From: Escherichia phage JN01
Sequence record: MN882542
Length of the DNA stretch: 64,000 nt
Direction: 5' to 3' (one strand)
Below are positions 2,969-37,979 of this stretch, piece after piece (the first letter of the stretch is position 1; every line of letters starts with the position of its first letter). A program made the position numbers and the translations under genes. The notes under the pieces are model-generated. The model did no database searches. It was not told the origin of the DNA and saw only the letters and a program-made list of their open reading frames with translations.

Positions 2969-3289
2969 ATGAGCAAAGTTTATAACACTCGTAAATTACA
3001 GATTTTCGTACTGTGCCAGTTTATGGCTAAAGAGTATAACTGCTACTATTGTGGTACAGGGTTCATCAGTGACAATGACGGTTCATATCTACCATTCAAA
3101 GAGGCTGTAAAACTCTTCAATGAAGAGAAAAGCTCTAAGAAAGATATTGAAAAGGTTAAGCTAACCTACAGCAAGAAAGATAAGAAGATTATCTGCCTAG
3201 ATAACTTTGTGAAAGTTACTGGAGAAGCAAAAGAGTTTATGGATGAGAGTGAAATCTCATTCACAAGCATCTTGAAAGTAGCTCAGTAA
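2969..3289 (+). CDS. hypothetical protein
   Basis: 106 aa ORF directly after previous stop. Confidence 0.5.
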   Translation: MSKVYNTRKLQIFVLCQFMAKEYNCYYCGTGFISDNDGSYLPFKEAVKLFNEEKSSKKDIEKVKLTYSKKDKKIICLDNFVKVTGEAKEFMDESEISFTSILKVAQ

Positions 3290-3301
3290 ACAGATACTAT
3301 A

Positions 3302-3330
3302 AGGGGACTGTAAAGGTTCCCTTTTTTATT
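3302..3330 (+). terminator. intrinsic terminator
   Basis: GGGGAC-tgtaaa-GGTTCCC hairpin followed by TTTTTTATTTT. Confidence 0.55.
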
Positions 3331-3341
3331 TTGGAGATAAT

Positions 3342-3857
3342 ATGTATCTGTCAAATCTGAAACGTTCTGCTGCAATGTCAGTTCTAAGACTCAGCTTCGA
3401 GGAACGTCAAGAGTTCATTGACTCCCACCAATACGACCCTTCTAACTCAAATCACATGATTCTCTGGAATCGTGATAGTACCCGTGAAAGAGCACTATTC
3501 CGATATTACCCACACTACACCATAGATAACCTGTATGAATGTTTTGTTGTGAAGAACACTATCACAGTGCTCAATAAACTTTGCAGATACACAGGTAATC
3601 AAGCATTCACATTAGGTCACCACAAACCTGTTACAAAAGGTGGTGAACATCACTGTGCAAACTGGTTTATCCAAACTAAACTTGATAACCAGAAGCAAGG
3701 AGATAGTCTTTTAAGCACCTCTAAGATGACCTATGAAGAGCAAGAGAAATATATCAAAAATAATATGCCAGATGTGCTTGACAACAACTATACAGATTTG
3801 GCAATATCTCTCCTGTTGAAGTTCGAGACAGTTTATAGGGCAACTTACAATGGCTAA
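3342..3857 (+). CDS. hypothetical protein, possible HNH-like nuclease
   Basis: 171 aa; segment GHHKPVTKGGEHHCANWFIQTKLDNQKQ loosely resembles an HNH core; RBS GGAG before ATG. Confidence 0.4.
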   Translation: MYLSNLKRSAAMSVLRLSFEERQEFIDSHQYDPSNSNHMILWNRDSTRERALFRYYPHYTIDNLYECFVVKNTITVLNKLCRYTGNQAFTLGHHKPVTKGGEHHCANWFIQTKLDNQKQGDSLLSTSKMTYEEQEKYIKNNMPDVLDNNYTDLAISLLLKFETVYRATYNG

Positions 3858-4128
3858 AGAGAAGTGGGAAATTTTACCATTAGTGAGTGAAGGTGGTAAC
3901 GGTTGTGAGATGTACATGATACGTGGTCATGTCCCAGAACCGATTGCACTTGAGATGGTAAACAACTTTACAGATGGCTCTTACAAAGACTTAGGAGAAC
4001 CAACTGTCAAGCAACAATGGGTTAAACCTGTACCAGACAGCACAGGTAACTGTAGTGTACTTTATCACGTTGTAGACCCTACAAAATGCAAATCTGCAAT
4101 GGCAGTAACAAACGTAACTTTTGATTGA
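3850..4128 (+). CDS. hypothetical protein
   Basis: 92 aa ORF overlapping previous stop. Confidence 0.45.
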   Translation: MAKEKWEILPLVSEGGNGCEMYMIRGHVPEPIALEMVNNFTDGSYKDLGEPTVKQQWVKPVPDSTGNCSVLYHVVDPTKCKSAMAVTNVTFD

Positions 4129-4137
4129 GAGAGAATT

Positions 4138-4593
4138 ATGATTTTTTGCAGCTTCCAAAAAAGAATTATTGAGATTCTATACAATAAGTTTGGGACAGAT
4201 AACACATTTGACTCAAATGAAGCTATTGAAGCTCTACAAGAAGGAAGTGATTACATCAAAAAACAGCCAATAGCAAACATCAGGTACTACTTGACTCAGA
4301 TGAGAAAGTGGGGTGTACTCATCGTGGTAGGACAGATTAAGCAACAAGGGAGGATGCTCATCAACCAATTAAATAGAGGTTTTATTGAGAAGCACATTCA
4401 GCTAGACTATTTACTTAAAGAGCCACGAAACCAACGTGAAGAGCAGCAAAAAGACTTAAGTGGTGGTGTAGATGTGTCTCCAGACATAAAATTCTTTATT
4501 GGTGAGTTGATGTTTGATACACTCCAAGATGCTGTTGAACACTGCAAAAAGTATATTATCAAAGTAAAACGTGCAAAAATTATTTGGGAGTAA
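4138..4593 (+). CDS. hypothetical protein, paralog family type A (copy 1)
   Basis: 151 aa; N-terminus MIFCSFQKRIIEILYNKFGTDNTFDSNEAIEAL and C-terminus AVEHCKKYIIKVKRAKIIWE shared with 5015..5479. Confidence 0.6.
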   Translation: MIFCSFQKRIIEILYNKFGTDNTFDSNEAIEALQEGSDYIKKQPIANIRYYLTQMRKWGVLIVVGQIKQQGRMLINQLNRGFIEKHIQLDYLLKEPRNQREEQQKDLSGGVDVSPDIKFFIGELMFDTLQDAVEHCKKYIIKVKRAKIIWE

Positions 4594-4597
4594 TAAC

Positions 4598-4993
4598 ATG
4601 TTTGAGCTTCTGAAGGTTCTGTATATAAATTTTGGCTATGATAAAACATTTTCTGGCTCACAACTAACTAAGGTTTTTAATAAATATCTACCACATGCTT
4701 CAATCAGGGATAAAGCTAATTGGTCTCACAGATTACGTAAAAGTGGGTATATTAGCGTTGTTGGAGCGACAGGCTTTAATAATGAGTATCTTATGAGAAT
4801 CAATGAAAGCAAAGCTAAAAATGTGCTTTTAAGTTGTAATGGCCATCAACAAAAGGATGAAGAGGTTAGTGTAGGTGAAGTAGGGTACTTCATAGGTGAC
4901 ATACACTTTACCAGTATGGAGGCAGCAGTTGAGCATTGTAAGAGAACGGTTATCCAAACAAAAAGAAAGCGTATTGTTTGGGAAGAAGTTTAA
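4598..4993 (+). CDS. hypothetical protein, paralog family type B (copy 1)
   Basis: ORF-track start 4571 is GTG; ATG at 4598 gives MFELLKVLYINFGYDKTF; C-terminus AVEHCKRTVIQTKRKRIVWE shares the family tail. Confidence 0.55.
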   Translation: MFELLKVLYINFGYDKTFSGSQLTKVFNKYLPHASIRDKANWSHRLRKSGYISVVGATGFNNEYLMRINESKAKNVLLSCNGHQQKDEEVSVGEVGYFIGDIHFTSMEAAVEHCKRTVIQTKRKRIVWEEV

Positions 4994-5014
4994 ACATTTG
5001 ATTAGGAATACACT

Positions 5015-5479
5015 ATGATTTTTTGCAATTTACAGAAGCACGTAATAGAGATTTTATACAAAACCTTCGGGACAGAAAACACTTTTGACTCTAACGAAGC
5101 AATTGACGCATTAAGAGAGAATAGCCTTTTTATACGAGGCCAGTCAATCAGTAATACCCGTGGGTATCTAACAATGTTAAGACAGTCTGGTGTACTGCTG
5201 ACTGTAGGGCAGGTAAAAAGCAAAGGTAGGCTAAGTATTAATCAATTAAATCGAGCCTTTATGGAGAAGCACATACAACTGTCAAGGATGCTAGATAATA
5301 CGCGTGAAGAGTTGGGGAGTTCACAAAAAGCAAGTTCATCTGATGTTAAAGATGTGGATGTACAACCTGACGTAAGATACTTTATTGCTGATGTTATGTT
5401 TAAAACACTCGATGAAGCTATTGAGCACTGCAAAAAGCATCTTATTAAAGTTAAACATGCAAAAGTTATTTGGGAGTGA
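5015..5479 (+). CDS. hypothetical protein, paralog family type A (copy 2)
   Basis: 154 aa; MIFCNLQKHVIEILYKTFGTENTFDSNEAIDAL ... AIEHCKKHLIKVKHAKVIWE. Confidence 0.6.
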   Translation: MIFCNLQKHVIEILYKTFGTENTFDSNEAIDALRENSLFIRGQSISNTRGYLTMLRQSGVLLTVGQVKSKGRLSINQLNRAFMEKHIQLSRMLDNTREELGSSQKASSSDVKDVDVQPDVRYFIADVMFKTLDEAIEHCKKHLIKVKHAKVIWE

Positions 5480-5483
5480 TGCT

Positions 5484-5864
5484 ATGATTGAACTGTTAAA
5501 AGTCCTGTATAATAAGTTTGGTTATGATAAAACTTTTACTTGTTCACAGATACGTAGTATCCATGACAAGGAATTTCCAAATGTATCCAAGACAAACAAG
5601 TCAACTCGGTTCAATCGTCTTCGCCAGAGGGGTTACATTAAAATAGTTGGATATAAGAATAACTCTTTCGAGTATGTAATGCAGATTAACAGAGAAGTAT
5701 CAAGTAAAATACTTGAAGAGCCAACAGCCGAAGAACAAAAGATACAAGATGGTGAAGTTCGCTTCTTTGTGGAGAAGGAAAGTTTTGGGTCAATAGATGA
5801 AGCTATCGAGTATTGTAAAAAGAACATTATCCAGATAAAGCGTAGAAAGGTTATTTGGGAATAA
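5484..5864 (+). CDS. hypothetical protein, paralog family type B (copy 2)
   Basis: ATG at 5484 gives MIELLKVLYNKFGYDKTF; C-terminus AIEYCKKNIIQIKRRKVIWE. Confidence 0.55.
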   Translation: MIELLKVLYNKFGYDKTFTCSQIRSIHDKEFPNVSKTNKSTRFNRLRQRGYIKIVGYKNNSFEYVMQINREVSSKILEEPTAEEQKIQDGEVRFFVEKESFGSIDEAIEYCKKNIIQIKRRKVIWE

Positions 5865-5883
5865 AGAGAGAGAGAGAGAAACT

Positions 5884-6765
5884 ATGAAAACATCTATCCG
5901 TGTTACAGTTCATTCACCAACTAAAGGGACTCATGAAGAAGAGTTTAACATCATCCAATTCCCTTCTGGTGAGATTGGTGGAAACTTTTCACCAGAGTTT
6001 GTTGATTTTACTGCTTATGCAGCATCATCTATCAACAATGTGATTATGATTGTAAAAGGTTATGATAAAGATACATTGTTTGCTGTGGCACTTGCTAAAG
6101 AGGCGGTGGACAACTTAGTACCTCATAAGTTTGCTATGAAGACCATTATCTTTTACTATTTGCCAAATGCACGTTATGACCGTCACATGTTTAAAGGTGA
6201 TGCAGCAGCTTTGAAAGTGTTTGCACAACAGGTTAATGCAATGGGTTTTGATGCAGTCTGTGCAGTTGACCCTCACAGCTATGTACCAGATAACCTGTTT
6301 AACTGCTTCCAGAGTATTCCTCAAAAGGAAATTGCAGTCCACTATGCAAATGACCCACTGGTTGATTACTTAGTAGCCCCAGATGCAGGTGCTTCTAAGA
6401 AGATTGCAGAGACTGCTAAAGAGGTGGATAAACCATACATCACAATGGCTAAGGTACGTGACCTTAAGACTGGTGAAATTACTGGTATGCGAATCCTTGA
6501 TGATGTTGATTTGACCGACAAAACTGTTATGATTCTCGACGATATCTGTGATGGTGGTCGAACCTTCATAGAAGCAGCTAAACATCTTCGTGAAGCAGGT
6601 GCAAAACGTGTGGAACTCTATGTAACACATGGTATCTTCTCTAAAGGCGTTGAAAACCTTCTTGACAATGGTATTGACCATATTTACACTACAAACTCTT
6701 TAGGGGAAGCTAAAGACCGTGGCTTAACACATTATGGTCAAGTTACTGTAGCAAACCTTGATTGA
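5884..6765 (+). CDS. prs: ribose-phosphate pyrophosphokinase (PRPP synthetase)-like protein; possibly ADP-ribose pyrophosphokinase of a NAD reconstitution pair
   Basis: PRTase-type motifs VAPDAGA and ILDDICDGGRTF, 293 aa; RBS GAGAGAGA before ATG. Confidence 0.75.
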   Translation: MKTSIRVTVHSPTKGTHEEEFNIIQFPSGEIGGNFSPEFVDFTAYAASSINNVIMIVKGYDKDTLFAVALAKEAVDNLVPHKFAMKTIIFYYLPNARYDRHMFKGDAAALKVFAQQVNAMGFDAVCAVDPHSYVPDNLFNCFQSIPQKEIAVHYANDPLVDYLVAPDAGASKKIAETAKEVDKPYITMAKVRDLKTGEITGMRILDDVDLTDKTVMILDDICDGGRTFIEAAKHLREAGAKRVELYVTHGIFSKGVENLLDNGIDHIYTTNSLGEAKDRGLTHYGQVTVANLD

Positions 6766-6769
6766 AACT

Positions 6770-6796
6770 TTATAGGGGCTTCAAAGCCCCATTTTG
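6770..6796 (+). terminator. hairpin with weak T-tract between prs-like and NAMPT-like genes
   Basis: GGGGCTT-caa-AGCCCC followed by ATTTTG; may act as attenuator. Confidence 0.35.
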
Positions 6797-6811
6797 AGAG
6801 AGATTAAAAAG

Positions 6812-8593
6812 ATGACTAAATCACTTTATGCAGTACCAGCAGGTTTAAACGCAGATGCTTACAAATCTGGTCATGTTTACCAGTACCCTAGTGCAACAGA
6901 GTACTTGATGTTTAACCTGACACCACGTAGCAATAAATGGTTTAACAGCCCTTTAGCAATTGACGGTGTAGTGGCTTTTGGTATTCAACGTTTTGTTAAA
7001 GATTACTTGATAGACCACTGGAATGCCACCTTCTTTGAACGTGACAAAAAAGAAGCAATTGATGAAATCTTAGAAGTCATGAACGGTGTTCTGGGTAAAG
7101 ATGCTATTGGTCGAGAGCATTGGGAAGCACTTCATGACTTGGGTTATCTACCAGTTGAAGTATACGCTGTAGAAGAAGGCACAGTTGTCCCTATGCGTGT
7201 CCCAATGATTGTCTTCCAGAACACTATTTCAGGTTTCCATTGGGTAGCTGGGTATCTGGAAGATGCTTTCTCTGCTGAGATTTGGAAGGCTTGTACCATT
7301 GCAACTATTGCATTGCACTACAAACGTATCTGTAAGAAGTGGGCTGACCTTACTTGTGACAACGACTTGCATTTACCTTACCAGTGCCATGACTTTGCTA
7401 TGCGTGGTATGTCCGGCTTCACTGATGACGCATTTAATGCTGTAGGACACTTAACCAGCTTCAAAGGAACTGATAGCTTCCCTGCTGTATATACAGCTAA
7501 ACGCATCTATGGACAGTCCTACCCAATCTCTGATATTGGTAGCTCTGTACCAGCCACTGAACACTCTGTAATGTGTGCAAACATTGCTTGGGAAGGTGGT
7601 AATGAGTTGATTGAAGAAGAAAGACGCTTTAAAGGTGAGTTACAAACCTTCCGTCGTTTCTTAACAGAAACTTATCCAACTGGTATTGCAAGTGTTGTTT
7701 CAGACACTTATAATTTCTGGAGAACTGTATCAGAAATCTTACCAGCACTTCGTAAAGAGATTATGGAACGTGATGGCAAACTGGTAATTCGTCCTGACTC
7801 TGGCGACCCTGTACATATTGTCACAGGTTATAAAGCAATCCACTTAGAGTGTGCTAAAAAGGCTTATTACGAACACCTAAGCAAGCTGGAAGCCAGTGAC
7901 ACAATGTTGAATGCTGTTCTGAACATGAAGCTTGAAAACATCAACTATGGTATTGCTGGATGGCTACTGTCAGAAGGCTACGAAATGGTTGTTGACAGAG
8001 AAGACTTTGAAGTTGCTGATACAGTGCTGTTGAAAAATGCTTATATGGTTGGTTCTGCAAACGTTGTAACGCGTCCTGTAGCAGAGATTGATGGGGCCAT
8101 TAAGACACTGTATAACATCTTCGGAGGAACTATCAACTCTAAAGGCTTCAAGGTACTGGATGAGCACATCGGCCTTATCTATGGTGACTCTATCACGTTG
8201 GAACGTGCAAACGAAATCCTGAAGCGTTTGTATGAAATGGGTTTTGCAAGCTCTAACGTAGTGTTTGGTGTAGGTTCTTACACTTACCAGTACATTACTC
8301 GTGACACCTTTGCATTTGCTGTCAAAGCAACTCTTGCAAGCATTGGTGGTAAAGAGATTATGCTTGCAAAAGACCCTAAAACAGATAGTGGTGTTAAGAA
8401 GTCTGCTTTTGGTGGTGTAGCACCCATGTGGGATGGTGAGAATCTGAAAGCTGTAGATGGCTATGGGTTCCAGAGCTTTGCAGATGCACTTGAACATCCA
8501 GCTTGTGCTTTACGTTTAGTCTTTAGCGACTCTGAGCAGTTCGGCTACACAACTCTTGGCGATATTCGAAATAATATTGACAAGCAGCTTTAA
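6812..8593 (+). CDS. nadV: nicotinamide phosphoribosyltransferase (NAMPT/NadV) family protein
   Basis: N-terminal NADAYKSGHVYQYP resembles the NAMPT substrate motif (DSYKVTHYKQYP); about 593 aa; ORF-track start 6794 is TTG, ATG at 6812. Confidence 0.75.
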   Translation: MTKSLYAVPAGLNADAYKSGHVYQYPSATEYLMFNLTPRSNKWFNSPLAIDGVVAFGIQRFVKDYLIDHWNATFFERDKKEAIDEILEVMNGVLGKDAIGREHWEALHDLGYLPVEVYAVEEGTVVPMRVPMIVFQNTISGFHWVAGYLEDAFSAEIWKACTIATIALHYKRICKKWADLTCDNDLHLPYQCHDFAMRGMSGFTDDAFNAVGHLTSFKGTDSFPAVYTAKRIYGQSYPISDIGSSVPATEHSVMCANIAWEGGNELIEEERRFKGELQTFRRFLTETYPTGIASVVSDTYNFWRTVSEILPALRKEIMERDGKLVIRPDSGDPVHIVTGYKAIHLECAKKAYYEHLSKLEASDTMLNAVLNMKLENINYGIAGWLLSEGYEMVVDREDFEVADTVLLKNAYMVGSANVVTRPVAEIDGAIKTLYNIFGGTINSKGFKVLDEHIGLIYGDSITLERANEILKRLYEMGFASSNVVFGVGSYTYQYITRDTFAFAVKATLASIGGKEIMLAKDPKTDSGVKKSAFGGVAPMWDGENLKAVDGYGFQSFADALEHPACALRLVFSDSEQFGYTTLGDIRNNIDKQL

Positions 8594-8607
8594 AAGTATA
8601 TGATAAG

Positions 8608-8632
8608 AGGCTCCTACGGGAGCCTTTTTAAT
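8608..8632 (+). terminator. intrinsic terminator
   Basis: GGCTCC-tacg-GGAGCC hairpin followed by TTTTTAATTT. Confidence 0.65.
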
Positions 8633-8646
8633 TTCTGGAGAAGATT

Positions 8647-8982
8647 ATGAAAATCAAAGAAATGAACATCAACATTGTCTTAGAAGAACGTTGGGAGAAC
8701 ATCAAGAAGCCTGAAAATGGTCATAAGTTCCTCAACAAAATCTTAGTGGCAGCTAAAGAAGAACTGACTGGCAAGGTTGCAGCAGCAATCACAATAAAGG
8801 TGTGTGTAAAAGGTCTTCCAGACAATCACCAATTTGCACTTGACGAGTTTAAAGAAAGCTTCTACAATCCAAACAAACAGATGCTTGAAAGTAACTTTGC
8901 AGTATCTACAAGTATCGTCCATGACAGAAGCTTTATCCTTTACAAGAATATGAGAGGTGAGTCATGCAAGCATATTGGATAG
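8647..8982 (+). CDS. hypothetical protein
   Basis: 111 aa ORF with GGAG RBS. Confidence 0.5.
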   Translation: MKIKEMNINIVLEERWENIKKPENGHKFLNKILVAAKEELTGKVAAAITIKVCVKGLPDNHQFALDEFKESFYNPNKQMLESNFAVSTSIVHDRSFILYKNMRGESCKHIG

Positions 8983-17623: not shown

Positions 17624-17676
17624 TTGCATCAGACGGGGCGACAAGCCCGATAGCCTTAAACTAGGAGAATCTAAAA

Positions 17677-17883
17677 ATGCTATACGGTCGTGAATTGATG
17701 GTTACAACTAACGTTAACACAAATGTAAAACGTTTTTACATGCAAATTTGTGGCGTATGGTCTAGAATATCAGAAGCTGATTATTGCAACTATGTAGAAA
17801 CGGCAATCAACTCTGATTGTTATCTTACAAGGAATACTAAAAAATTTACGAGACAGACAGCAGTTTATTACTACGATATCTAA
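17677..17883 (+). CDS. hypothetical early protein
   Basis: 68 aa ORF behind conserved leader/RBS. Confidence 0.5.
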   Translation: MLYGRELMVTTNVNTNVKRFYMQICGVWSRISEADYCNYVETAINSDCYLTRNTKKFTRQTAVYYYDI

Positions 17884-17971
17884 TAAAGTACTTTACAAGG
17901 GGTTTAAAAGTTGATATCTTAAGCCCCAGATAAAGAGCTTTATCAACAACCTTAAACTAGGAGATTCAAAA
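17884..17971 (+). promoter_or_regulatory. intergenic cassette type 1 (promoter overlapping stem-loop, conserved leader and RBS)
   Basis: TTTACA, 17 bp, TATCTT; stem GGGGTTTAA...TTAAGCCCC; then AGATAAAGAGCTTTA...CCTTAAACTAGGAGATTCAAAAATG. Confidence 0.55.
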
Positions 17972-18352
17972 ATGGCATATCGTGCACCTAAATTCATCAA
18001 TAAAGACAACTTCCGCAACGCACTGGAAAAATCACTTGACGAGAATTTTACAGGTCAGATTATTGTTGTTCACGCATTCAATTTTAAGTATGACATTAAC
18101 GGGAACAGAATCAACCATTACACGGCAACCATGTTAGATGGTGCGCTTTCAAGTGAAAAAGCCGTACTGAATGCGCTTGCTGGACGTGGTAAAAACCTGA
18201 TAAGATGCGATAAGAGACGTTATCAAGGTGGCGCATATGGTTATGATGATGCTGTTTACCATCTTGAAAATATGGGCTATTCAGTGGAGAAAGCTGGAGC
18301 GTCTCAAATAATCGGTAGTGATGGTTATGTGACAATTTTCAAAATTAACTGA
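17972..18352 (+). CDS. hypothetical early protein
   Basis: 126 aa ORF with conserved start context aaaATGGC. Confidence 0.55.
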   Translation: MAYRAPKFINKDNFRNALEKSLDENFTGQIIVVHAFNFKYDINGNRINHYTATMLDGALSSEKAVLNALAGRGKNLIRCDKRRYQGGAYGYDDAVYHLENMGYSVEKAGASQIIGSDGYVTIFKIN

Positions 18353-18440
18353 TAAAGTACTTTACAAGGGGCTTATAGTTCGATAAAGTAAGCCCCAGAT
18401 AAAGAGCTTTACCACTCAATCCTAAATTGGAGATTCTAAA
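18353..18440 (+). promoter_or_regulatory. intergenic cassette type 1
   Basis: TTTACA-17-TAAAGT with stem GGGGCTTAT...AAGCCCC; conserved leader and AGGAG/TGGAG RBS. Confidence 0.55.
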
Positions 18441-18698
18441 ATGGCTATTATCAAAAACGTTGTAATTACTGCAAAAACTCGCGATGACGCTCGCATCATG
18501 GCGAAAAAGTTAGGCGGGAAAGTTGTTGACAACGGAAAACAATCTGCTGTAAGATGGGGCGTGAAGGCTGATAAACAACTAACCTTAAAACGCAGTTCAA
18601 ACAATCTTTTTAAAGGTGTAAAATCACTCGGTAAAGTGAACGTGTTTACCAAAAAAGGCTATAAAATGCACTTATCATTAACTGGCAATTTAATCTGA
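18441..18698 (+). CDS. hypothetical early protein
   Basis: 85 aa basic ORF. Confidence 0.55.
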   Translation: MAIIKNVVITAKTRDDARIMAKKLGGKVVDNGKQSAVRWGVKADKQLTLKRSSNNLFKGVKSLGKVNVFTKKGYKMHLSLTGNLI

Positions 18699-18788
18699 TA
18701 AAGTACTTTACATGGGGCTTAAAAGCTGATATCTTAAGCCCCAGATAAAGAGCTTTACCACTCAATCCTTAAACTAGGAGATTCAAAA
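18699..18788 (+). promoter_or_regulatory. intergenic cassette type 1
   Basis: Near-identical copy of 17884..17971 (TTTACA-17-TATCTT, GGGGCTTAA stem). Confidence 0.55.
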
Positions 18789-19301
18789 ATGAAAACTGTA
18801 GACGCTACCTTTGAAGTTGTAAAAGAAAAATTCACCATTATTTATGAAGCTATTAATTGCTTTGAAGCAAGCCATAATCTTGATAATTGGAAGTTTACAG
18901 ATGACCATCAAGGCGGCGTGACTGTTAAAAATCCCAACTGTCAGCGTAATGATTTTAAATATGCAATCCCTTTACATTACAGCCTTAAACAGCTTTCAAG
19001 TGACTATGCAAAACAAGGCCGGGAAAATCCATCAAAAGAGGCTTACATCAGCTTACAGAAAGAACTAGAAAGAGATTTGGATGCTTCAGAGTATAACATT
19101 GCCGCTAAAGTTGTGGATGCCAACGGTAAAACGATTTTAGACAGTTTTTATATTGGTTACGCTTTCGATTGGTGCTACAGTGACGGCGATGATTTAGATG
19201 ACAGGCTAAAAGAGGAAGTGAACAACGCAGACGCAGAATCTGAAGTATTAGAACGCTTGGAAGCATTAAAAGATTCAGTGATGAATATCTTTAAGGACTA
19301 A
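18789..19301 (+). CDS. hypothetical early protein
   Basis: 170 aa acidic ORF. Confidence 0.55.
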   Translation: MKTVDATFEVVKEKFTIIYEAINCFEASHNLDNWKFTDDHQGGVTVKNPNCQRNDFKYAIPLHYSLKQLSSDYAKQGRENPSKEAYISLQKELERDLDASEYNIAAKVVDANGKTILDSFYIGYAFDWCYSDGDDLDDRLKEEVNNADAESEVLERLEALKDSVMNIFKD

Positions 19302-19392
19302 ATAGACCTCTTTACACGGGGCTAACAAGCTGATATGATAGCCCCAGATAAAGAGATTTATCAAATTAACCCTTAAACTAGGAGATTCTAAA
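19302..19392 (+). promoter_or_regulatory. intergenic cassette type 1 variant
   Basis: TTTACA-17-TATGAT with stem GGGGCTAAC...AGCCCC; conserved RBS. Confidence 0.5.
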
Positions 19393-19689
19393 ATGAAATT
19401 ATCAAATAAAGTTAGGGAAAACCTTAGCAAATTACTCAATAAAATTGATTTTATCGAGACATCAAGAAATAGTCATGATGTTATGGAATGGTTACACGGC
19501 AAAATAAAAGGCCGTCGTGTAGTGATTTGCTTATGGAACAGTTGCAGGGAGTATAAAAAACCTGTATTGCAAGTTAATATATACGATAATACTTTTAAAA
19601 GTCCTGTTAAATCTAAAAGTGATTTATTAGAATCTTATGAGATAACTGTAAATGGCAAGGTATCACGTAAAGAGGTAACACCATGTTAA
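19393..19689 (+). CDS. hypothetical early protein
   Basis: 98 aa ORF. Confidence 0.55.
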   Translation: MKLSNKVRENLSKLLNKIDFIETSRNSHDVMEWLHGKIKGRRVVICLWNSCREYKKPVLQVNIYDNTFKSPVKSKSDLLESYEITVNGKVSRKEVTPC

Positions 19690-20015
19690 TGATGGGTATC
19701 ACTGCAATCATTGCCATTATAGCACTTTATAAGGCTTACAGCGCATATAATTTGGCAAGTAAGGCAATCACGCAGCAGGTCAATAATAACCTTGTAATGA
19801 GCTTTCTGGAGCGTTTAAGCGATGAACAAATAAAACGGTTAGAAATGAGCTTCAGATTTCAATCAAAAACTTATCAAATCAGCGACATTTTCAAAGATGA
19901 TTTTCAGCTTGTCGATGATTATAACTCTCTGATAAATGCTTTAAATATCAGTGATTTAAAAGATTATCATGCTGTAATAGTTCAAGAATTGAGCAAACGA
20001 AAAAATTCCTCTTGA
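19683..20015 (+). CDS. hypothetical membrane protein
   Basis: 110 aa; hydrophobic N-terminus (MGITAIIAIIALY). Confidence 0.5.
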   Translation: MLMMGITAIIAIIALYKAYSAYNLASKAITQQVNNNLVMSFLERLSDEQIKRLEMSFRFQSKTYQISDIFKDDFQLVDDYNSLINALNISDLKDYHAVIVQELSKRKNSS

Positions 20016-20105
20016 TTTTGGTTTTTAAAACAAGTAAATTACTAATCAACGGGGAGGGAATGACCTTCCCCACTAAGTAAAGTCCTTAAACTAGGAGATT
20101 CGAAA
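20016..20105 (+). promoter_or_regulatory. intergenic cassette type 2 (promoter, then leader stem-loop GGGGAGGG/CCTTCCCC, then RBS)
   Basis: TTGATT, 17 bp, TAAATT; leader ACTAATCAACGGGGAGGGAATGACCTTCCCCACTAAGTAAAGTCCTTAAACTAGGAGATTC. Confidence 0.55.
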
Positions 20106-20378
20106 ATGTATACTACTAACAATGGTCGCACTTTGAACGTAACCCTGCGCCACTATGTGAACGGTGTAATGCACTTCGAGGATTTACAAGCTGAACAACA
20201 TATATTGGATTGGCAACTTGCAGGACTCCAAAAAACTGCTACCGGATACGGGAAAAAGATTCCAACTAGCTGGAAAGTATACTACGAAGGACGTTTGCGC
20301 AGAATTTATCAAGATGTATGCAGCAATAGCGCATCAAGTTACATCATGGTAAAAGGTAAAAAATTACACTTAGTATAA
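20106..20378 (+). CDS. hypothetical early protein
   Basis: 90 aa ORF. Confidence 0.55.
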   Translation: MYTTNNGRTLNVTLRHYVNGVMHFEDLQAEQHILDWQLAGLQKTATGYGKKIPTSWKVYYEGRLRRIYQDVCSNSASSYIMVKGKKLHLV

Positions 20379-20463
20379 AGTACTTTACAAGGGGCTTATA
20401 GTTCGATAAAGTAAGCCCCAGATAAAGAGCTTTATCACTCAATCCTAAATTGGAGATTCTAAA
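20379..20463 (+). promoter_or_regulatory. intergenic cassette type 1
   Basis: Copy of 18353..18440. Confidence 0.55.
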
Positions 20464-20868
20464 ATGGCTATTAATAATCGTGAGTTATCAATCTTAAAAG
20501 CACGTTTGACCGTTAACCGGATTAATGTTATTACGTCATCAGCACCTGATGAGACATTGCACAACATTATCGGGAAGATTCAAAGTGTTATCTTAGACGT
20601 TGAAAGCGTAAAAAACTCACTGGCTGACGTTGCAGCAGGTATCACGCTAGACGGTGCACAATATGAAATGGCTGACATGTTAGGCAAATCTAAGGTAATG
20701 AATAAAGAGCTTGATTTAAAAATGTTTCGTTTTGCTGTTAAAGTGTGGCTATCTGTCGAGTATGACGCAAATTTTGCAATCGCTGACTTTTTTGCAACAT
20801 GGTTGCAACGTAATTTAACAAATCATGATTTTCGTGATATCTGCGATGTAATTTACGCAGAACTATAA
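20464..20868 (+). CDS. hypothetical early protein
   Basis: 134 aa ORF. Confidence 0.55.
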   Translation: MAINNRELSILKARLTVNRINVITSSAPDETLHNIIGKIQSVILDVESVKNSLADVAAGITLDGAQYEMADMLGKSKVMNKELDLKMFRFAVKVWLSVEYDANFAIADFFATWLQRNLTNHDFRDICDVIYAEL

Positions 20869-20971
20869 AAATTTTTCTTGATTTTGGTTTTTAAAACAAG
20901 TAAATTACTAATCAACGGGGAGGGAAGGACCTTCCCCACTAAGTAAAGTCCTTAAACTAGGAGATTCAAAA
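20869..20971 (+). promoter_or_regulatory. intergenic cassette type 2
   Basis: Copy of 20016..20105 with one base change in the stem-loop. Confidence 0.55.
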
Positions 20972-21172
20972 ATGGCTATTATTAACGGCTTAAACATTGA
21001 AACTACTCACATCAAAGACATTAAAGTCGGTGATGTAGTCCTTTCCCACGGCGTAGAAAAAACTGTCACTGCAAAGGATATCAAAGAGGATTCTTTCATG
21101 GGTAGAACTCTCTTCGGTGATTCTTATTGCTTAGGTTATCTTGCAGTTTTAAAAGTTGTCAAAAATAACTGA
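20972..21172 (+). CDS. hypothetical early protein
   Basis: 66 aa ORF. Confidence 0.5.
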   Translation: MAIINGLNIETTHIKDIKVGDVVLSHGVEKTVTAKDIKEDSFMGRTLFGDSYCLGYLAVLKVVKNN

Positions 21173-21267
21173 TAAAGTACTTTACAAGGGGCTTAAAAGC
21201 TGATATCTTAAGCCCCAGATAAAGAGCTTTACCACTAAATCAAGTCCTTAAACTAGGAGATTCAAAA
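21173..21267 (+). promoter_or_regulatory. intergenic cassette type 1
   Basis: TTTACA-17-TATCTT with GGGGCTTAA stem; conserved leader and RBS. Confidence 0.55.
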
Positions 21268-21810
21268 ATGAAATGCTTTCACGGTACTACTCAAGAAAAC
21301 TTCATCAACTTAATTAATAACGGTGATAAACCATCAGGCGCATGGAATTGTTCGGATATGGATGGCAATTTTTACGTTTATCCAGAAAATAAAATCTATG
21401 GCGACGATGAGGAAGAAATAATCTCTGAAGGCATTCAACAAGCTTTAGGCAATGCCACTATAACGGCAGCTTTTCAGATGAAAACTCAAAATATTGTTAT
21501 CTTAGAACTTGATATCCCAGAGGATGAGTTGAATGATGATTATTCTTGTGATAATATGTCGAGCGTAGCAAGTTTTACAGAATACTTCGATTTAAATTGG
21601 ATTAAAAAGGTTTACGTAACCGAGTTTAATGCAATGTTTTCACCTTTTTGTCTTCCTTCACTGGATAACCCAAATTTAAACTATCTTGAGGAGACATTAG
21701 AACTACTTGCTAAAAGTGTTCAACAGTCGGACAGTATTCAGGTTTTTTGTGACATCATGGATACACTGACAGGAAACATTACAGAAGAGGATTTAAAGAG
21801 CTTTTTATAA
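21268..21810 (+). CDS. hypothetical early protein
   Basis: 180 aa acidic ORF. Confidence 0.55.
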   Translation: MKCFHGTTQENFINLINNGDKPSGAWNCSDMDGNFYVYPENKIYGDDEEEIISEGIQQALGNATITAAFQMKTQNIVILELDIPEDELNDDYSCDNMSSVASFTEYFDLNWIKKVYVTEFNAMFSPFCLPSLDNPNLNYLEETLELLAKSVQQSDSIQVFCDIMDTLTGNITEEDLKSFL

Positions 21811-21876
21811 TAACCTATACAATCACCTTATAAATACTGATTATCCCCTCATAGGGGCTTTTAGGAGGCTTAAATC

Positions 21877-22119
21877 ATGCTTACAACCATTTACCTCATC
21901 CTTTCTATTTGTAATGGTCATTCATGCGATTTTAAAGGGCTTGAGGAGTTTACAGGGAGTAAAGAAAATGCCGTTCAAGTGTGCCAGATAGCAAGGCAAG
22001 ACTATCCCGCCAGTGATGATATACAATGTTACTTTAAGACAGAAGATGAAGACGGTATCTATTTTGACAGCGTAGATGGTCAATATGAAATTATCATTGA
22101 AAAGACTAGACAAGCCTGA
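21877..22119 (+). CDS. hypothetical protein
   Basis: 80 aa ORF, hydrophobic N-terminus, TAGGAGG RBS. Confidence 0.5.
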   Translation: MLTTIYLILSICNGHSCDFKGLEEFTGSKENAVQVCQIARQDYPASDDIQCYFKTEDEDGIYFDSVDGQYEIIIEKTRQA

Positions 22120-22198
22120 TAAAAGTCTGTAAATTGTCAATCAACGGGAGGTAATAACCTCCCCACTAAGTAAAGTCCTTAAACTAGGAGATTCTAAA
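22120..22198 (+). promoter_or_regulatory. intergenic cassette type 2 variant
   Basis: TAGACA-17-TAAATT; stem GGGAGGTAATAACCTCCCC; conserved RBS. Confidence 0.5.
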
Positions 22199-22540
22199 AT
22201 GGCTTATGTAACCGTAATTACCGATAAAGCTGGCTCATCTTGGTCAACTCAAGTAAGTGATAAGATGTCACCTATGCAGTGCCTAAAATACTTTGAGCAA
22301 TGGAACAAAGGCGAGAATGTCAGCCCCTTTCAAGTCATGCAGATTATCCATACAGATAACGAAGGGAATAAAACTGTTTTGAATAGTGAGTACTACGCAA
22401 CCCGATTTGAAACGAGATGTAAAGCAATGAAGCTTTTGCGTGAGTCTGGTTATTCTCATATCGCCTCACTAATCTGGGATGACCTGCTAAAAAATCAGCG
22501 TATCAGCTATGTAAAACCTGAAAAAATATTCATCAGTTAA
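22199..22540 (+). CDS. hypothetical early protein
   Basis: 113 aa ORF. Confidence 0.55.
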   Translation: MAYVTVITDKAGSSWSTQVSDKMSPMQCLKYFEQWNKGENVSPFQVMQIIHTDNEGNKTVLNSEYYATRFETRCKAMKLLRESGYSHIASLIWDDLLKNQRISYVKPEKIFIS

Positions 22541-22760
22541 TCAATAACTTACAAAAAACTTTTTAAAAAGTATTGACAATACCCCTTGACATTGGTAAAT
22601 TTGTTCGAGGGGGTTTATCTAAAAGGGATTAACTTAAAAGATTCTTTATAGATAAGCTTAAAAAATTGCTTGCAATCAGATATCAAAACAAGTAAATTAC
22701 TAATCAACGGGAGGGATAACCTCCCTACTAAGTAAAGTCCTTAAACTAGGAGATTCAAAA
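22541..22760 (+). promoter_or_regulatory. extended intergenic region ending in a type 2 cassette
   Basis: Tandem TTGACA boxes near 22572 and 22586, then TTGCAA-17-TAAATT, stem GGGAGGGATAACCTCCC and RBS. Confidence 0.45.
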
Positions 22761-23291
22761 ATGAACAAGTTCAAAGCTATCAACTTCATTCGTTCAAATA
22801 GTGTTATGTCAAAGCCTGTTAAAGATACCTATGAATTTCGTTGCAATGGGGTGCATTTTGCAACCATCACCAAATCAGAAAACGGAGCTTATTACATCCA
22901 TCGCCGTAATGTTGCAACCGTTGTTGTCTCTCACTTTATGCAAGCTGTCGCGGAACTTCTCCCGATGTTTTTAGGGCTTTACTTGGATGAGTGTAAAAAC
23001 GTTCACAATCACGTTAAAAACCTTTTAAACAGCTATAAAATGGCTTATGAACGTTCTATCAAGTCATTGAACAAGTTTTACAACGCACCTGAAAACACTG
23101 TGTCAATAGCCTATGGTGTAAGCGGTGAAATGGTAAACTTATCCAATGTGGAAGAAATCAAGCTGCATGATTTACGCCCTAACGGTTACGCTAAAACCAT
23201 CGGTGAAGGTTTAACTTTCAATATCAAGAACTTAGAAAAAACTTTAAAAGATATTGAAAAAGATATTGACGAGACAATCAAAAGTCTGTAA
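22761..23291 (+). CDS. hypothetical early protein
   Basis: 176 aa ORF. Confidence 0.55.
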   Translation: MNKFKAINFIRSNSVMSKPVKDTYEFRCNGVHFATITKSENGAYYIHRRNVATVVVSHFMQAVAELLPMFLGLYLDECKNVHNHVKNLLNSYKMAYERSIKSLNKFYNAPENTVSIAYGVSGEMVNLSNVEEIKLHDLRPNGYAKTIGEGLTFNIKNLEKTLKDIEKDIDETIKSL

Positions 23292-23357
23292 ATTGTCAAT
23301 CAACGGGGAGGGAATGACCTTCCCCACTAAGTAAAGTCCTAAACTGGAGTTATCAAG
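23292..23357 (+). promoter_or_regulatory. intergenic cassette type 2 variant
   Basis: TAAATT box and GGGGAGGGAATGACCTTCCCC stem; divergent RBS GGAG. Confidence 0.45.
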
Positions 23358-23621
23358 ATGGAAAACGTCGAACTGACCACACTTTTACAAATTGCAACCG
23401 ACAAAGAGGATGTAGCATTATTCCACCGTATCGAAAGTGATTTGTTCAATGGTGAAATCATTAAAGAATCTTACGAAGTGGTCGGATTCAAAGATGGTAA
23501 ATCATTTGGATTCTTTGACCTCGACAAAGGCAACGCTATTACAAAGTATGATGTTTTATCTTGTGAGATTCTGACAAAATACAACGAAAAAAGACTTGCA
23601 ACATACGCCAACATGCAGTAA
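23358..23621 (+). CDS. hypothetical early protein
   Basis: 87 aa ORF. Confidence 0.5.
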   Translation: MENVELTTLLQIATDKEDVALFHRIESDLFNGEIIKESYEVVGFKDGKSFGFFDLDKGNAITKYDVLSCEILTKYNEKRLATYANMQ

Positions 23622-23686
23622 ATTACTAATCAACGGGAGGGATGACCTCCCTACTAAATAAAGTCCTTAAACTAGGAGATTCTAAA
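23622..23686 (+). promoter_or_regulatory. intergenic cassette type 2
   Basis: TTGCAA-17-TAAATT overlapping the end of the previous ORF; stem GGGAGGGATGACCTCCC; conserved RBS. Confidence 0.5.
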
Positions 23687-35234: not shown

Positions 35235-35308
35235 CTCTGTTTAGCTCAGCTTGGTAGAGCGTTCCGTTTGGGGCGGTAAGGCCGGAGGTTCAAGTCCTCC
35301 AACAGAGA
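35235..35308 (+). tRNA. tRNA-Pro(TGG)
   Basis: Hand-folded cloverleaf, anticodon loop TTTGGGG, T-arm GGAGGTTCAAGTCCTCC, CCA encoded. Confidence 0.7.
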
Positions 35309-35318
35309 CCAAATTAAT

Positions 35319-35392
35319 GTTCCAGTAGACAAAATGGTAAAGTCACCACTCTTTCAAAGTGGATATTTGAGGGTTCAAATCCCTTCTGGAAT
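35319..35392 (+). tRNA. tRNA-Glu(TTC)
   Basis: Acceptor GTTCCAG/CTGGAAT, anticodon stem-loop CCACT-CTTTCAA-AGTGG, T-loop TTCAAAT, CCA encoded. Confidence 0.7.
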
Positions 35393-35403
35393 GCCAGTTT
35401 TGA

Positions 35404-35476
35404 CAGAAGACCAATTACAGCAAGTTTAATCTTATTCATCTGACACGAAATCGGACAAAGAAGAGATTTGGTCTGG
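35404..35476 (+). ncRNA. stem-closed structured element A (Y-RNA-like candidate)
   Basis: 5' arm CAGAAGACCAA pairs with 3' arm TTGGTCTGG; conserved ACAGCAA box after 5' arm. Confidence 0.35.
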
Positions 35477-35487
35477 TCATTAAGAAT

Positions 35488-35561
35488 TGCGGGTATAGAG
35501 AAAGGGCGTCTCACATGTCTCATTAGCATGGTATCGGCAGGTTCGACTCCTGCACCCGCCT
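35488..35561 (+). tRNA. tRNA-Met or Ile2 (CAT), slightly atypical acceptor/D junction
   Basis: Anticodon stem-loop CATGT-CTCATTA-GCATG, T-arm GCAGGTTCGACTCCTGC, CCA encoded; 1-72 pair mismatched. Confidence 0.55.
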
Positions 35562-35570
35562 CCAATTTTG

Positions 35571-35630
35571 CAGAAGACCGTATTCAGCAACAAACTACTT
35601 TTTGCGGATAAAAGAAAAAACACGGTCTGG
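35571..35630 (+). ncRNA. stem-closed structured element B (Y-RNA-like candidate)
   Basis: 5' arm CAGAAGACCGT pairs with 3' arm ACGGTCTGG; the two bases beside GACC covary relative to element A (AA/TT vs GT/AC). Confidence 0.35.
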
Positions 35631-35641
35631 CAATGTATTAA

Positions 35642-35715
35642 GGTTAGGAAGCACATAAGGTATGTGCGGTCGCCTGTTAAGCGAATGGCACAGGGTTCGA
35701 ATCCCTGACTAACCG
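35642..35715 (+). tRNA. tRNA-Asn(GTT)
   Basis: Acceptor GGTTAGG/ACTAACC, anticodon loop CTGTTAA, T-arm CAGGGTTCGAATCCCTG, CCA encoded. Confidence 0.65.
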
Positions 35716-35727
35716 CCAAATTTAAAT

Positions 35728-35812
35728 GTGTCGTTATCCCGTAGATGGTAGCGGTGGGGACTGTAAATCCCTTGTCATTGAGACTCGGTAGGTTCGACTC
35801 CTACACGGCACA
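35728..35812 (+). tRNA. tRNA-Tyr(GTA), class II
   Basis: Anticodon stem-loop GGGGA-CTGTAAA-TCCCT, long variable arm, T-arm GTAGGTTCGACTCCTAC, CCA encoded. Confidence 0.7.
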
Positions 35813-35821
35813 CCAAATAAA

Positions 35822-35895
35822 GGTTATGTAGTTTAACTGGTTAAAATACTCCCCTGTCACGGGAGATGATGAGGGTTCAAATCCCTTCGTAACCG
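35822..35895 (+). tRNA. tRNA-Asp(GTC)
   Basis: Acceptor GGTTATG/CGTAACC, anticodon stem-loop CTCCC-CTGTCAC-GGGAG, T-loop TTCAAAT, CCA encoded. Confidence 0.7.
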
Positions 35896-35984
35896 CCAAA
35901 TTATAATAAGTATTTCAAAATGCTGTTTGAGAGGGCTATTTAGCCTCTCCCTTAAAGAGTTCTTACGAGTATTCTTTAAAGGAG

Positions 35985-36061
35985 CAGAAGACCAAATTCA
36001 GCAAGTACGTATGATATTTTCAAGCCAATTTAATTTTGAAAAAATTTAAAACTTGGTCTGG
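35985..36061 (+). ncRNA. stem-closed structured element C (Y-RNA-like candidate)
   Basis: 5' arm CAGAAGACCAA, ATTCAGCAA box, 3' arm TTGGTCTGG. Confidence 0.35.
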
Positions 36062-36074
36062 CTCAACAAATTTA

Positions 36075-36206
36075 CAGAAGACCGTTTACAGCAAAACTTA
36101 AACAATCTATTTCTCCGGTAAAGAAAAGGCGAAGGTTCGATTCCTTCACTCGGCAGGTGTCGAGTTGGTGTAATGGTAGCACTTAAGATGATAAACAACG
36201 GTCTGG
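36075..36206 (+). ncRNA. stem-closed element D with embedded tRNA-like module (YrlA-like Y RNA candidate)
   Basis: Arms CAGAAGACCGTT / AACGGTCTGG enclose hairpin TTTCT-CCGGTAA-AGAAA, T-arm GAAGGTTCGATTCCTTC, capped helix ACTCGGC-AGGT-GTCGAGT and D-arm GTGTAATGGTAGCAC. Confidence 0.45.
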
Positions 36207-36216
36207 TAATTATCTT

Positions 36217-36354
36217 TGTAGATAAGTTATTAAGCTTACCTGTGAGTATGCGACCACAAAGGGTGAAAGGGTAAATTCTAGATTTAAACCCAACAATGCA
36301 CATCGCTACAGACCTTAAGCAAGTCTGGGTAGCTTATCTACAAAGATAATTTAA
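36217..36354 (+). ncRNA. structured element E: 21 bp inverted repeat pair around a CAGACC...GGTCTG hairpin
   Basis: TTATCTTTGTAGATAA at 36221 and its reverse complement TTATCTACAAAGATAA at 36335; inner hairpin CAGACCTTAAGCAAGTCTGG. Confidence 0.3.
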
Positions 36355-36355
36355 T

Positions 36356-36428
36356 GGAAGTGTAGCAGAATGGTGATGCGGCAGACTTTTAATCTGACAG
36401 GCGATGGGTTCGAATCCCTCCACTTCTA
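36356..36428 (+). tRNA. tRNA-Lys(TTT)
   Basis: Acceptor GGAAGTG/CACTTCT, anticodon stem-loop CAGA-CTTTTAA-TCTG, T-loop TTCGAAT, CCA encoded; paralog of 38064..38135 with compensatory stem changes. Confidence 0.6.
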
Positions 36429-36435
36429 CCAATAT

Positions 36436-36509
36436 GGTTCAGTCGCAGATAAGGTAATGCAGGGGTTTCATAAGCCCTATGAATGTGGGTTCGATTCCCA
36501 TCTGAACCT
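36436..36509 (+). tRNA. tRNA-Met(CAT)
   Basis: Acceptor GGTTCAG/CTGAACC, anticodon stem-loop GGGGT-TTCATAA-GCCCT with three G-C pairs, T-arm GTGGGTTCGATTCCCAT, CCA encoded. Confidence 0.65.
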
Positions 36510-36513
36510 CCAA

Positions 36514-36586
36514 GCTGGTATAGTTAAGAAGGTTATAACACTCCCCTGATAAGGGAATATCGGTGGTTCGATTCCACCTACCAGTA
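36514..36586 (+). tRNA. tRNA-Ile(GAT)
   Basis: Acceptor GCTGGTA/TACCAGT, anticodon loop CTGATAA, T-arm GGTGGTTCGATTCCACC, CCA encoded. Confidence 0.7.
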
Positions 36587-36604
36587 CCAATTTCAATAAA
36601 GTTG

Positions 36605-36633
36605 TTGACATTGAGATGTGACTACTTTATAGT
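36605..36633 (+). promoter_or_regulatory. candidate sigma70-type promoter inside tRNA cluster
   Basis: TTGACA, 17 bp spacer, TATAGT. Confidence 0.5.
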
Positions 36634-36956
36634 AACTGAAAATAATTCAGCATATGTATAATTCAAACACCAATACATGAGCGTTAGACGTAACACAATG
36701 TGGGGAAATTTGTTGTACATATTCTGAATAGTTTTCGTTGCGTAGCGTCTATTTTGCAAATTTAAAATAAATGCAAACGACAATGTTTTTCTGGCAGTAG
36801 CTTGATAGGCTAAACACCAGTGAGGTCTTCCAATCCCTCATCAAAGAATTTGGCGTACTCGCCCACGGTATGATTAATAAGGTGGGCAACATTCTAAAGG
36901 GTATCCCTTATGGGGCTTGGCTTAAATGCAATGAGTACCCTTTAAAATGTTAATTA

Positions 36957-37035
36957 CGGGGCGTATCTCAGCGGTCTTCTAAACCGCCGTTAACCGAGTA
37001 AGTGGAGTATGCGGGTTCGAGTCCTGCCGCCTCGA
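36957..37035 (+). tRNA. atypical tRNA-like gene, Arg(TCT)-type anticodon loop, no recognisable D-arm
   Basis: Acceptor CGGGGCG/CGCCTCG, anticodon stem-loop GCGGT-CTTCTAA-ACCGC, T-arm GCGGGTTCGAGTCCTGC, CCA encoded; only 7 nt between acceptor and anticodon stem, 23 nt variable region. Confidence 0.4.
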
Positions 37036-37053
37036 CCAATTTTGGATGAAATC

Positions 37054-37401
37054 ATGAAAACTTGTATTAGGTGCAAACTTAGCAAGGATGAAAGTGATTT
37101 CTACATGAAAGATGGTAGGAGAACTCATTCATACTGTAAAAAGTGTGTTAATGAGCAAACCATAGAAAGACAAAGAGCACTTAAACTTTCAGCTATTGAG
37201 TACAAAGGTGGAGTTTGTCATGATTGTGGTAAAAGGTATCATCCAGCAGTGTATGACTTCCATCATTTGAATCCTTCAGAGAAAGATTTTAACATTGGTC
37301 ATAGAAAAAGTCTTAAGTTCTCTCAGGAGCTAAAGGACGAACTTGACAAATGTGTTTTGCTATGTTCAAATTGCCATAGGGTAAGACATGCAAAGTATTA
37401 G
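37054..37401 (+). CDS. HNH endonuclease (homing-endonuclease-like) inside the tRNA cluster
   Basis: CxxC...CxxC zinc pairs with HNH core DFHHLNPSEKDFNIGH...CSNCHRVRH; ORF-track start 37009 falls in the tRNA-like T-arm, ATG at 37054 preferred. Confidence 0.75.
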   Translation: MKTCIRCKLSKDESDFYMKDGRRTHSYCKKCVNEQTIERQRALKLSAIEYKGGVCHDCGKRYHPAVYDFHHLNPSEKDFNIGHRKSLKFSQELKDELDKCVLLCSNCHRVRHAKY

Positions 37402-37618: not shown

Positions 37619-37633
37619 CCAAAGTCTTATTAG

Positions 37634-37908: not shown

Positions 37909-37979
37909 TCTAAGGTTATTACAGCTTGTTGTGGAACCTTGTTGCTTAGGTTCTTAGAAGTTCTCTAAAAAGATTTAAT

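Follow-up and report, generated by a model that had tools for sequence, protein, structure and literature searches.

Paralogous proteins with a predicted winged helix form two optional cassettes beside the NARP1 genes of a Felix O1-like phage

Escherichia phage JN01 (sequence record MN882542) is represented here by a stretch of 64,000 nucleotides (nt), the window, which comes from a Felix O1-like phage of the genus Felixounavirus and shares 97.9% identity with Salmonella phage SP3_SHan-2021 over 5.3 kb. Between positions 4138 and 5864 it carries four consecutive genes in the order A-B-A-B, all encoding members of one essentially undescribed and very rare protein family. What are these genes, and what could a phage do with four of them? 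The best explanation is that they are two accessory cassettes, [A1B1] and [A2B2], of a family restricted to the Ounavirinae, in which a predicted N-terminal winged helix is joined to a conserved C-terminal domain. The array is optional among related phages and lies between genes validated as acting against host defences. An optional counter-defence or host-takeover function, and not core phage regulation, is the role that we tentatively favour, while rating it somewhat short of probable.

Four related genes in two units

The array genes are as follows; for the B genes the most likely starts are given, in place of longer, mechanically called open reading frames (ORFs).

4138-4593, plus strand: A1 gene, 151 residues; predicted N-terminal winged helix, acidic linker and conserved C-terminal mini-domain
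4598-4993, plus strand: B1 gene, 131 residues; shorter paralogue of A1 with the same predicted architecture; ATG 4 nt past the A1 stop, GGGAG at 4586-4590
5015-5479, plus strand: A2 gene, an ORF of 154 residues, 59% identical to A1
5484-5864, plus strand: B2 gene, 126 residues; ATG 4 nt past the A2 stop, GGGAG at 5472-5476

A first, sequence-only reading of this DNA had proposed four alternating paralogous ORFs here, and the same-strand ORFs and their pairwise identities confirm it. B1 and B2 are 41-42% identical (E=5e-37), and A and B types share 26-33% identity along their full length. This similarity is not limited to a low-complexity tail: BLASTP aligns A1 with B1 over both domains (E=2e-17), and the N-terminal domains of A and B by themselves (E=2e-6). 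The common length of about 150 residues that had been given is wrong for the two B proteins. The common C-terminus is real as a set of family-wide invariants, F..(5)..F..(5)..A.E.C....I..K.....WE, whereas the exact string AVEHCKKYIIKVKRAKIIWE is confined to A1.

The likely starts of B1 and B2 are ATG 4598 and ATG 5484, which lie 7-8 nt downstream of GGGAG and line up with helix 1 of the A type; longer versions starting with GTG or TTG run into the A genes. The GGGAG Shine-Dalgarno sequence sits within the conserved Trp-Glu codons (...IWE) of the A gene, 4 nt separate A from B, and the terminal Glu codon is GAG in 4/4 A genes with a B gene downstream and GAA in every gene without a coupled gene downstream. 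Gap, Shine-Dalgarno position and codon pattern together argue that A and B are translationally coupled. Scans of the array region gave no meaningful ORF on the opposite strand and no Rfam family, and operator-like repeats in and around the array came up only as weak matches.

Did the array arise by duplication of a two-gene unit, as first proposed? The A-B unit itself is supported; a recent duplication in place is not supported, given 59% identity for A1/A2, 42% for B1/B2 and saturated synonymous divergence (dS) in both pairs. Direct DNA repeats within the array lie 877-886 nt apart and are 73-77% identical. A third A-like type, A3, is about as near to A1 (55% identity) as A2 is, and A2 is found elsewhere with A3 and without a B gene. 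From the divergence and the occurrence of A2 without B it follows that the array is either an ancient duplication or two units joined by recombination. The two units of the window are old and divergent, and may have been brought together by recombination instead of duplication in place.

A rare family of phage proteins

All four array proteins match PHROG 29478, a profile of 150 positions annotated as of unknown function (E=8.7e-64, 8.8e-68, 2.5e-14 and 3.7e-15); the A types cover positions 1-150 and the B types run from 9 or 10 to 150. PHROG 29478 is the family itself. It assigns no function, draws no distinction between the A, B, A3 and C types and leaves the cassettes undescribed. Pfam and NCBIfam scans of all types returned noise only, with no winged-helix or helix-turn-helix family even at E<=1. 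No member scores above the gathering threshold of the MarR, PadR, Fur or HxlR hidden Markov models (HMMs), and a profile search of Protein Data Bank (PDB) chain sequences gave no regulator family at E<=10.

Across 5.8 billion proteins, a search turned up 14 clusters at 90% identity. Of the five hits from an exhaustive HMM search of 1.84 billion representatives, three are the family itself and the other two are P0015 and P0016. P0015 is a distant relative that occurs in single copy, here called the C type. Seeding a word-based search of the 5.8 billion proteins with it added only P0017, an A3-type variant 88% identical to the second gene of phage Mordin. P0016 is a Lys/Glu-rich protein of 1424 residues with at least five tandem winged-helix repeats, and its similarity to the N-domain of the family is weak (E=1.8e-5). 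Two loci were found in JGI metagenomes, none in IMG/VR scans, and 5,426 complete E. coli genomes and 72,556 plasmids gave no match. A literature search on Felix O1 winged-helix proteins or Felix O1 transcriptomics found nothing, and the accessory-gene screen of Silas et al. did not cover the Felix O1-like group.

Occurrence and exchange of the cassettes

A tblastn search with A1 against 50,697 phage records found the family in 15 records, which come from 13 distinct phages; four copies are present in ten records and two copies in five. Among 257 phage records with a match to the 5.3 kb around the array, 10 have it in full. Carriage amounts to about 5% of related genomes, and about 95% lack the array yet otherwise have the same genome organisation. 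The comparison of copy number in related phages that had been suggested as a check returns 0, 2 or 4 array genes, and the array is optional.

The order A1-B1-A2-B2 occurs in the window, in nine distinct phages of the phage collection and in one JGI metagenome contig, while two Logan contigs from a less closely related Ounavirinae lineage have A1-B1 alone. In Pr103Blw, Mordin, KMM2, Henu11 and locus L008, A2 is followed by A3, with no B gene; the A2 orthologues of Pr103Blw, Mordin and L008 are 71-81% identical to A2 of the window. Read from these combinations, the units are [A1B1], [A2B2], [A2] and [A3]. Every array uses one insertion site, between homologues of Bas63 gp78 and gp79. In the array-less phages SP116 and Bas63, the gp78 homologue (92 residues) is followed by the downstream gene after 11-12 nt (11 nt between gp78 and gp79 in Bas63).

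Two carriers depart from this layout. Salmonella phage fBSPA4 (1074-1090 of its locus) has the four-gene array without the 92-residue gp78 homologue, and the array begins 15 nt past the gp77 homologue. In phage vB_EcoM_ESCO50 (OM386664.1) the region matching window positions 3300-8600 contains an additional stretch of about 460 nt whose annotation is HNH homing endonuclease. In the array proteins themselves, Pfam matches no homing endonuclease or mobile nuclease domain (HNH, GIY-YIG, LAGLIDADG and others).

How are cassettes gained and lost? Three boundary elements can be recognised in the window.

4119-4137, plus strand: upstream boundary element TTTTGATTGAGAGAGAATT, which covers the final codons and stop of the gp78 homologue and a GAGAGA ribosome-binding site; the identical sequence stands directly before adps in the array-less SP116 and Bas63
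4994-5014, plus strand: degenerate boundary copy ACATTTGATTAGGAATACACT between [A1B1] and [A2B2], from junction comparison across loci
5865-5883, plus strand: downstream boundary copy, an (AG)7.5 tract plus AAACT before the adps ATG

The gaps between units measure 21-33 nt and contain a copy, degenerate to varying degrees, of the sequence directly in front of the array. Mordin has the boundary element on both sides of its array as a perfect 31-nt direct repeat, whereas in the window the downstream copy has turned into the (AG)7.5 tract, the only relevant result of a tandem-repeat scan. Recombination between boundary repeats would explain the 0/2/4 polymorphism and the gain and loss of cassettes. 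Presence of the array does not follow similarity of the flanks, as the array-less SP116 is 96.7% identical there and several carriers only 95.0-95.4%. In Pr103Blw the flanks are 96-98% identical and A2 only 81%. Both observations indicate that cassettes are exchanged laterally.

These features would also suit a selfish or addiction-like cassette, an A-B pair that spreads between co-infecting phages through the boundary repeats or acts against competing phages, with little benefit against the host. The patchy presence, the direct repeats and the mismatch in Pr103Blw all fit such an element. Yet no nuclease, recombinase or toxin-like domain was found with Pfam, NCBIfam or PADLOC. A and B are coupled, as the partners of a toxin-antitoxin system would be, but they are paralogues with the same architecture, and A-only units exist. 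We regard this explanation as improbable.

Selection on the array genes

Pairwise ratios of nonsynonymous to synonymous substitution (dN/dS) between orthologues of different genera are 0.05-0.09 for A1, 0.14-0.22 for B1, 0.05-0.11 for A2 and 0.16-0.25 for A3. The neighbouring Adps gene gives comparable values (0.12-0.14), and the array genes evolve no faster than their flanks. Such ratios indicate that the array genes are functional and under purifying selection. Fast arms-race evolution was considered and rejected, given the low dN/dS and a rate no higher than that of the flanks. Could the genes instead be decaying duplicates or miscalled ORFs with no function? The lack of any known domain and the extreme rarity of the family would suit this, but all four ORFs are intact, the ribosome-binding sites and the coupling are conserved, one domain is confidently predicted to fold, and dN/dS of 0.05-0.25 across genera contradicts it. 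An array without function is hardly credible.

Protein architecture

AlphaFold2 models of A1 and B1 show an N-terminal winged helix with a predicted local distance difference test (pLDDT) score of about 90; next come a helix and an acidic linker that is disordered, and the C-terminal part is a beta-hairpin and helix. The modelled topology, H1-S1-H2-H3-S2-S3, is that of a winged helix, in which H2-H3 form the helix-turn-helix and the beta-hairpin the wing. Foldseek matches the B1 model to DNA-bound winged-helix proteins, and the best matches at low root-mean-square deviation (rmsd) are DNA-binding regulators, including SarX, FOXN1 and PadR. A fold search of BFVD returned just family members and generic viral winged-helix proteins. 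The winged helix is the commonest DNA-binding fold in phages, and the earlier label of 'DNA-binding specificity factors' fits the predicted fold. Charge is distributed unevenly along the proteins: the N-domain is basic in A and B types (isoelectric point, pI, 8.7-9.9), as is the wing tip in A types; the linker of 20-40 residues is acidic in 13/14 A- and B-type proteins (pI 4.1-5.6); and the C-domain of 34 residues is mostly basic.

The two domains differ in how far they have diverged, in the opposite sense to what might be expected: comparison of A with B types gives 22-25% identity in the winged helix and 41-53% in the C-domain, and comparison with the C type gives 13-20% and 44-56%. The residues that do not vary across the family (F, F, A, E, C, I, K and the closing W-E) fall mostly in the C-domain, which is the family signature and a previously undescribed conserved domain. 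The searches gave no significant match to the C-domain, and two candidate relationships were set aside. The best, a local likeness to betaD-alphaB of the NCK SH2 domain (E about 0.09), was taken as a chance match of supersecondary structure, and a beta-beta-alpha-metal (HNH) nuclease was ruled out by the absence of an invariant His or Asn.

What would such proteins do? The fold and charge evidence behind the explanation favoured here would also suit accessory transcription factors, whose winged helix binds phage or host promoters and whose C-domain touches RNA polymerase or sigma, on the model of T4 MotA. Such factors would adjust when or how strongly phage or host genes are expressed and would not act on immunity directly. 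A variable DNA-reading module on a constant one is what activators with a common polymerase contact should look like, the selection seen is purifying and not diversifying, and many repeated promoter-like cassettes in the window offer possible targets. Against this stand the absence of the genes from about 95% of related phages with the same genome organisation, the lack of any operator-like repeat accompanying the cassette, and searches of Pfam, NCBIfam and PDB that found no similarity to MotA or any regulator family. Accessory transcription factors are a possibility that we take seriously but doubt.

Alternatively, the winged helix could be a protein-binding surface, as in kleisins, cullins and the winged-helix domains of NLR proteins, with each type blocking a host protein of its own (a defence effector, say, or a factor that organises the chromosome) and no nucleic acid involved. 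Many winged-helix domains do bind proteins, and the matches to the models are generic, MukF, cullin and ORC subunits being among them; both points also weaken the nucleic-acid reading preferred below. The strongly basic N-domains of A and B types and the DNA-binding regulators among the best low-rmsd matches speak against protein-binding inhibitors, which are a decidedly unlikely solution.

Genomic setting

The genes and sites around the array are listed here.

3272-3323, plus strand: promoter-like site TTGAAA-17-TACTAT, then a hairpin and T-run; putative start of the transcription unit (consensus scan)
3342-3857, plus strand: homologue of Bas63 gp77, 171 residues, 96% amino acid identity; first gene of the putative operon
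3850-4128, plus strand: homologue of Bas63 gp78, 92 residues, 98% amino acid identity, function unknown; the array begins 9 nt past its stop
5884-6765, plus strand: Adps (annotated prs), first NARP1 enzyme, 80% identical to Bas63 gp79
6812-8593, plus strand: Namat (annotated nadV/NAMPT), second NARP1 enzyme, 98% identical to Bas63 gp80
8605-8628, plus strand: hairpin resembling a terminator, downstream of namat; the unit putatively ends here (consensus scan)

Since a promoter-like start and a terminator-like end were found, and the consensus scan gave nothing convincing between them, the array is probably co-transcribed with gp77, gp78, Adps and Namat. Sigma-70-like promoter matches make the earlier description of an 'early region' plausible. 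Positions 3272-3341 and 8577-8648 share one layout, a sigma-70-like promoter followed directly by a GC-rich hairpin and T-run and then by GGAGA and an ATG, and they bracket the whole block from gp77 to Namat.

Bas63 is itself a Felixounavirus (PMC12609058), and published work on it has addressed what several of these neighbours do. Its genes 79-80 (Adps and Namat, together NARP1) rebuild NAD+ and overcome NAD+-depleting defence (bioRxiv 10.1101/2024.02.11.579819). From a knockout screen gp77 is reported to counter retron Ec67, g79/g80 also retron Ec86 and hhe, and rIIA/rIIB (g84/g85) QatABCD (bioRxiv 10.1101/2024.10.10.617714). The window carries rIIA/rIIB as well, and nucleotide-metabolism genes. 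The array lies directly upstream of NARP1 on the same strand, apparently in one transcription unit with it, but is not a part of it: Bas63 has no array and its NARP1 and gp77 work, so the array is not needed for either function, and the C-type gene P0015 is not adjacent to NARP1.

Some details of these neighbours deserve mention. The 80% identity of Adps to Bas63 gp79 reflects divergence mainly in the N-terminal two-thirds, and with the adjacent Namat at 98% it marks a mosaic border beside the array insertion site. For gp77 a GIY-YIG domain is given in the preprint; in the homologue at 3342-3857 Pfam finds no domain at all, and its motif HHKPVTKGGEHHCANW...N looks HNH-like. On a distant Ounavirinae-like Logan contig (SRR31815898_117897, 1-14374) an unknown gene of 178 residues lies between Adps and Namat, and the single-copy C-type relative lies in a group of small accessory genes, not far from those for WYL_2 and Macro-domain proteins.

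A possible role in counter-defence

A counter-defence or host-takeover role is favoured because the array is optional, exchangeable and embedded among validated counter-defence genes. In the mechanism that we propose, the proteins would be modular. The basic N-terminal winged helix, which varies strongly between types, most likely binds nucleic acid, and the near-constant C-domain would serve as an oligomerisation interface (for homo- or heterodimers) or as a contact to one shared partner; winged-helix regulators need dimerisation. The variable winged helix would set target specificity, and a phage with several types could cover several targets. A and B would be made together through translational coupling, with several types co-expressed from one transcription unit with the gp77 homologue and NARP1, and the cassettes would come and go by boundary-repeat recombination.

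A more specific version of this idea is a new class of counter-defence factors. Each winged helix would recognise a target of its own in host immunity, either a nucleic-acid component or a regulatory site, such as retron msDNA, the promoters of defence systems or another signalling nucleic acid; the C-domain would neutralise that target or recruit a shared partner; and phages would swap cassettes via the boundary repeats to match the defences of their hosts. We put this forward as speculation that is unlikely to hold.

Several points weigh against the role we favour. The earlier suggestion of 'anti-defense' stands as far as genomic location goes (between the gp77 homologue and NARP1), which is guilt by association and weak evidence, and even this linkage is not strict, as P0015 lies on a related contig 6 kb downstream of the NARP1 operon. 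None of six family members matches a PADLOC model or an anti-defence family at E<=1. Unlike many arms-race genes, the array genes are not fast-evolving. On the structural side, the C-domain is modelled with a pLDDT of just 65-73, its last 8-10 residues fall below 50 and are effectively unmodelled, and the N-domain of the C-type protein P0015 is not basic (pI 6.7).

Comparison with known systems

One of the closest known kinds is the small winged-helix regulator with a C-terminal dimerisation element, as in PadR-s2, MarR/SarX and Fur/PerR. The searches described above gave no sequence match to these proteins in Pfam or NCBIfam (E<=1) or among PDB chains (E<=10). The architecture differs as well: the array proteins carry their C-terminal beta-hairpin and helix on an acidic disordered linker of 20-40 residues, and they have no ligand- or metal-binding domain.

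T4 MotA offers a general parallel, a small protein with one DNA module and one module for a constant partner, from a virulent phage that is transcribed by host polymerase. MotA has a helical N-terminal domain and a 'double-wing' C-terminal domain, and is essential and single-copy. The array proteins have different folds and are optional and multi-copy, and no sequence similarity was found. AcrIIA1 and the Aca-type proteins are another point of reference, as small helix-turn-helix proteins within counter-defence clusters; in AcrIIA1 the N-domain binds DNA and the effector is a separate C-terminal domain. They belong mostly to temperate phages and regulate adjacent acr promoters. The array cassette, in contrast, lacks a promoter of its own, because its ATG stands 9 nt past the upstream stop; no sequence similarity was found here either, and no Acr is known near the array.

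Further features of the window

Two observations concern other parts of the window. Positions 17654-23679 hold ten exact copies of CCTTAAACTAGGAGA, against 0.18 expected by chance. They lie within a repeated cassette of about 90 nt, consisting of a promoter-like TTTACA-N17-GATATCT, a hairpin (AAGCCCCAGATAAAGAGCTTTATCTGGGGCTT in some), a ribosome-binding site and an ATG, which stands before a run of small ORFs. At 35235-40890, 25 transfer RNA genes are clustered on the plus strand, as is typical of Felix O1-like phages.

Perspectives

The array is a good experimental candidate, although not surprising in itself, and if its products turned out to be ordinary accessory regulators its value would be limited to annotating PHROG 29478. 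Felixounaviruses serve in the diagnostics of Salmonella and E. coli and in phage therapy, and their host range depends on the defences that they overcome. Here an optional module that phages can exchange sits between genes whose counter-defence functions have been validated by experiment, and natural comparators that are isogenic-like and carry 0, 2 or 4 genes make the locus a cheap and well-controlled test case for a new counter-defence or takeover function. It may also be a route to the role of the undescribed 34-residue domain.

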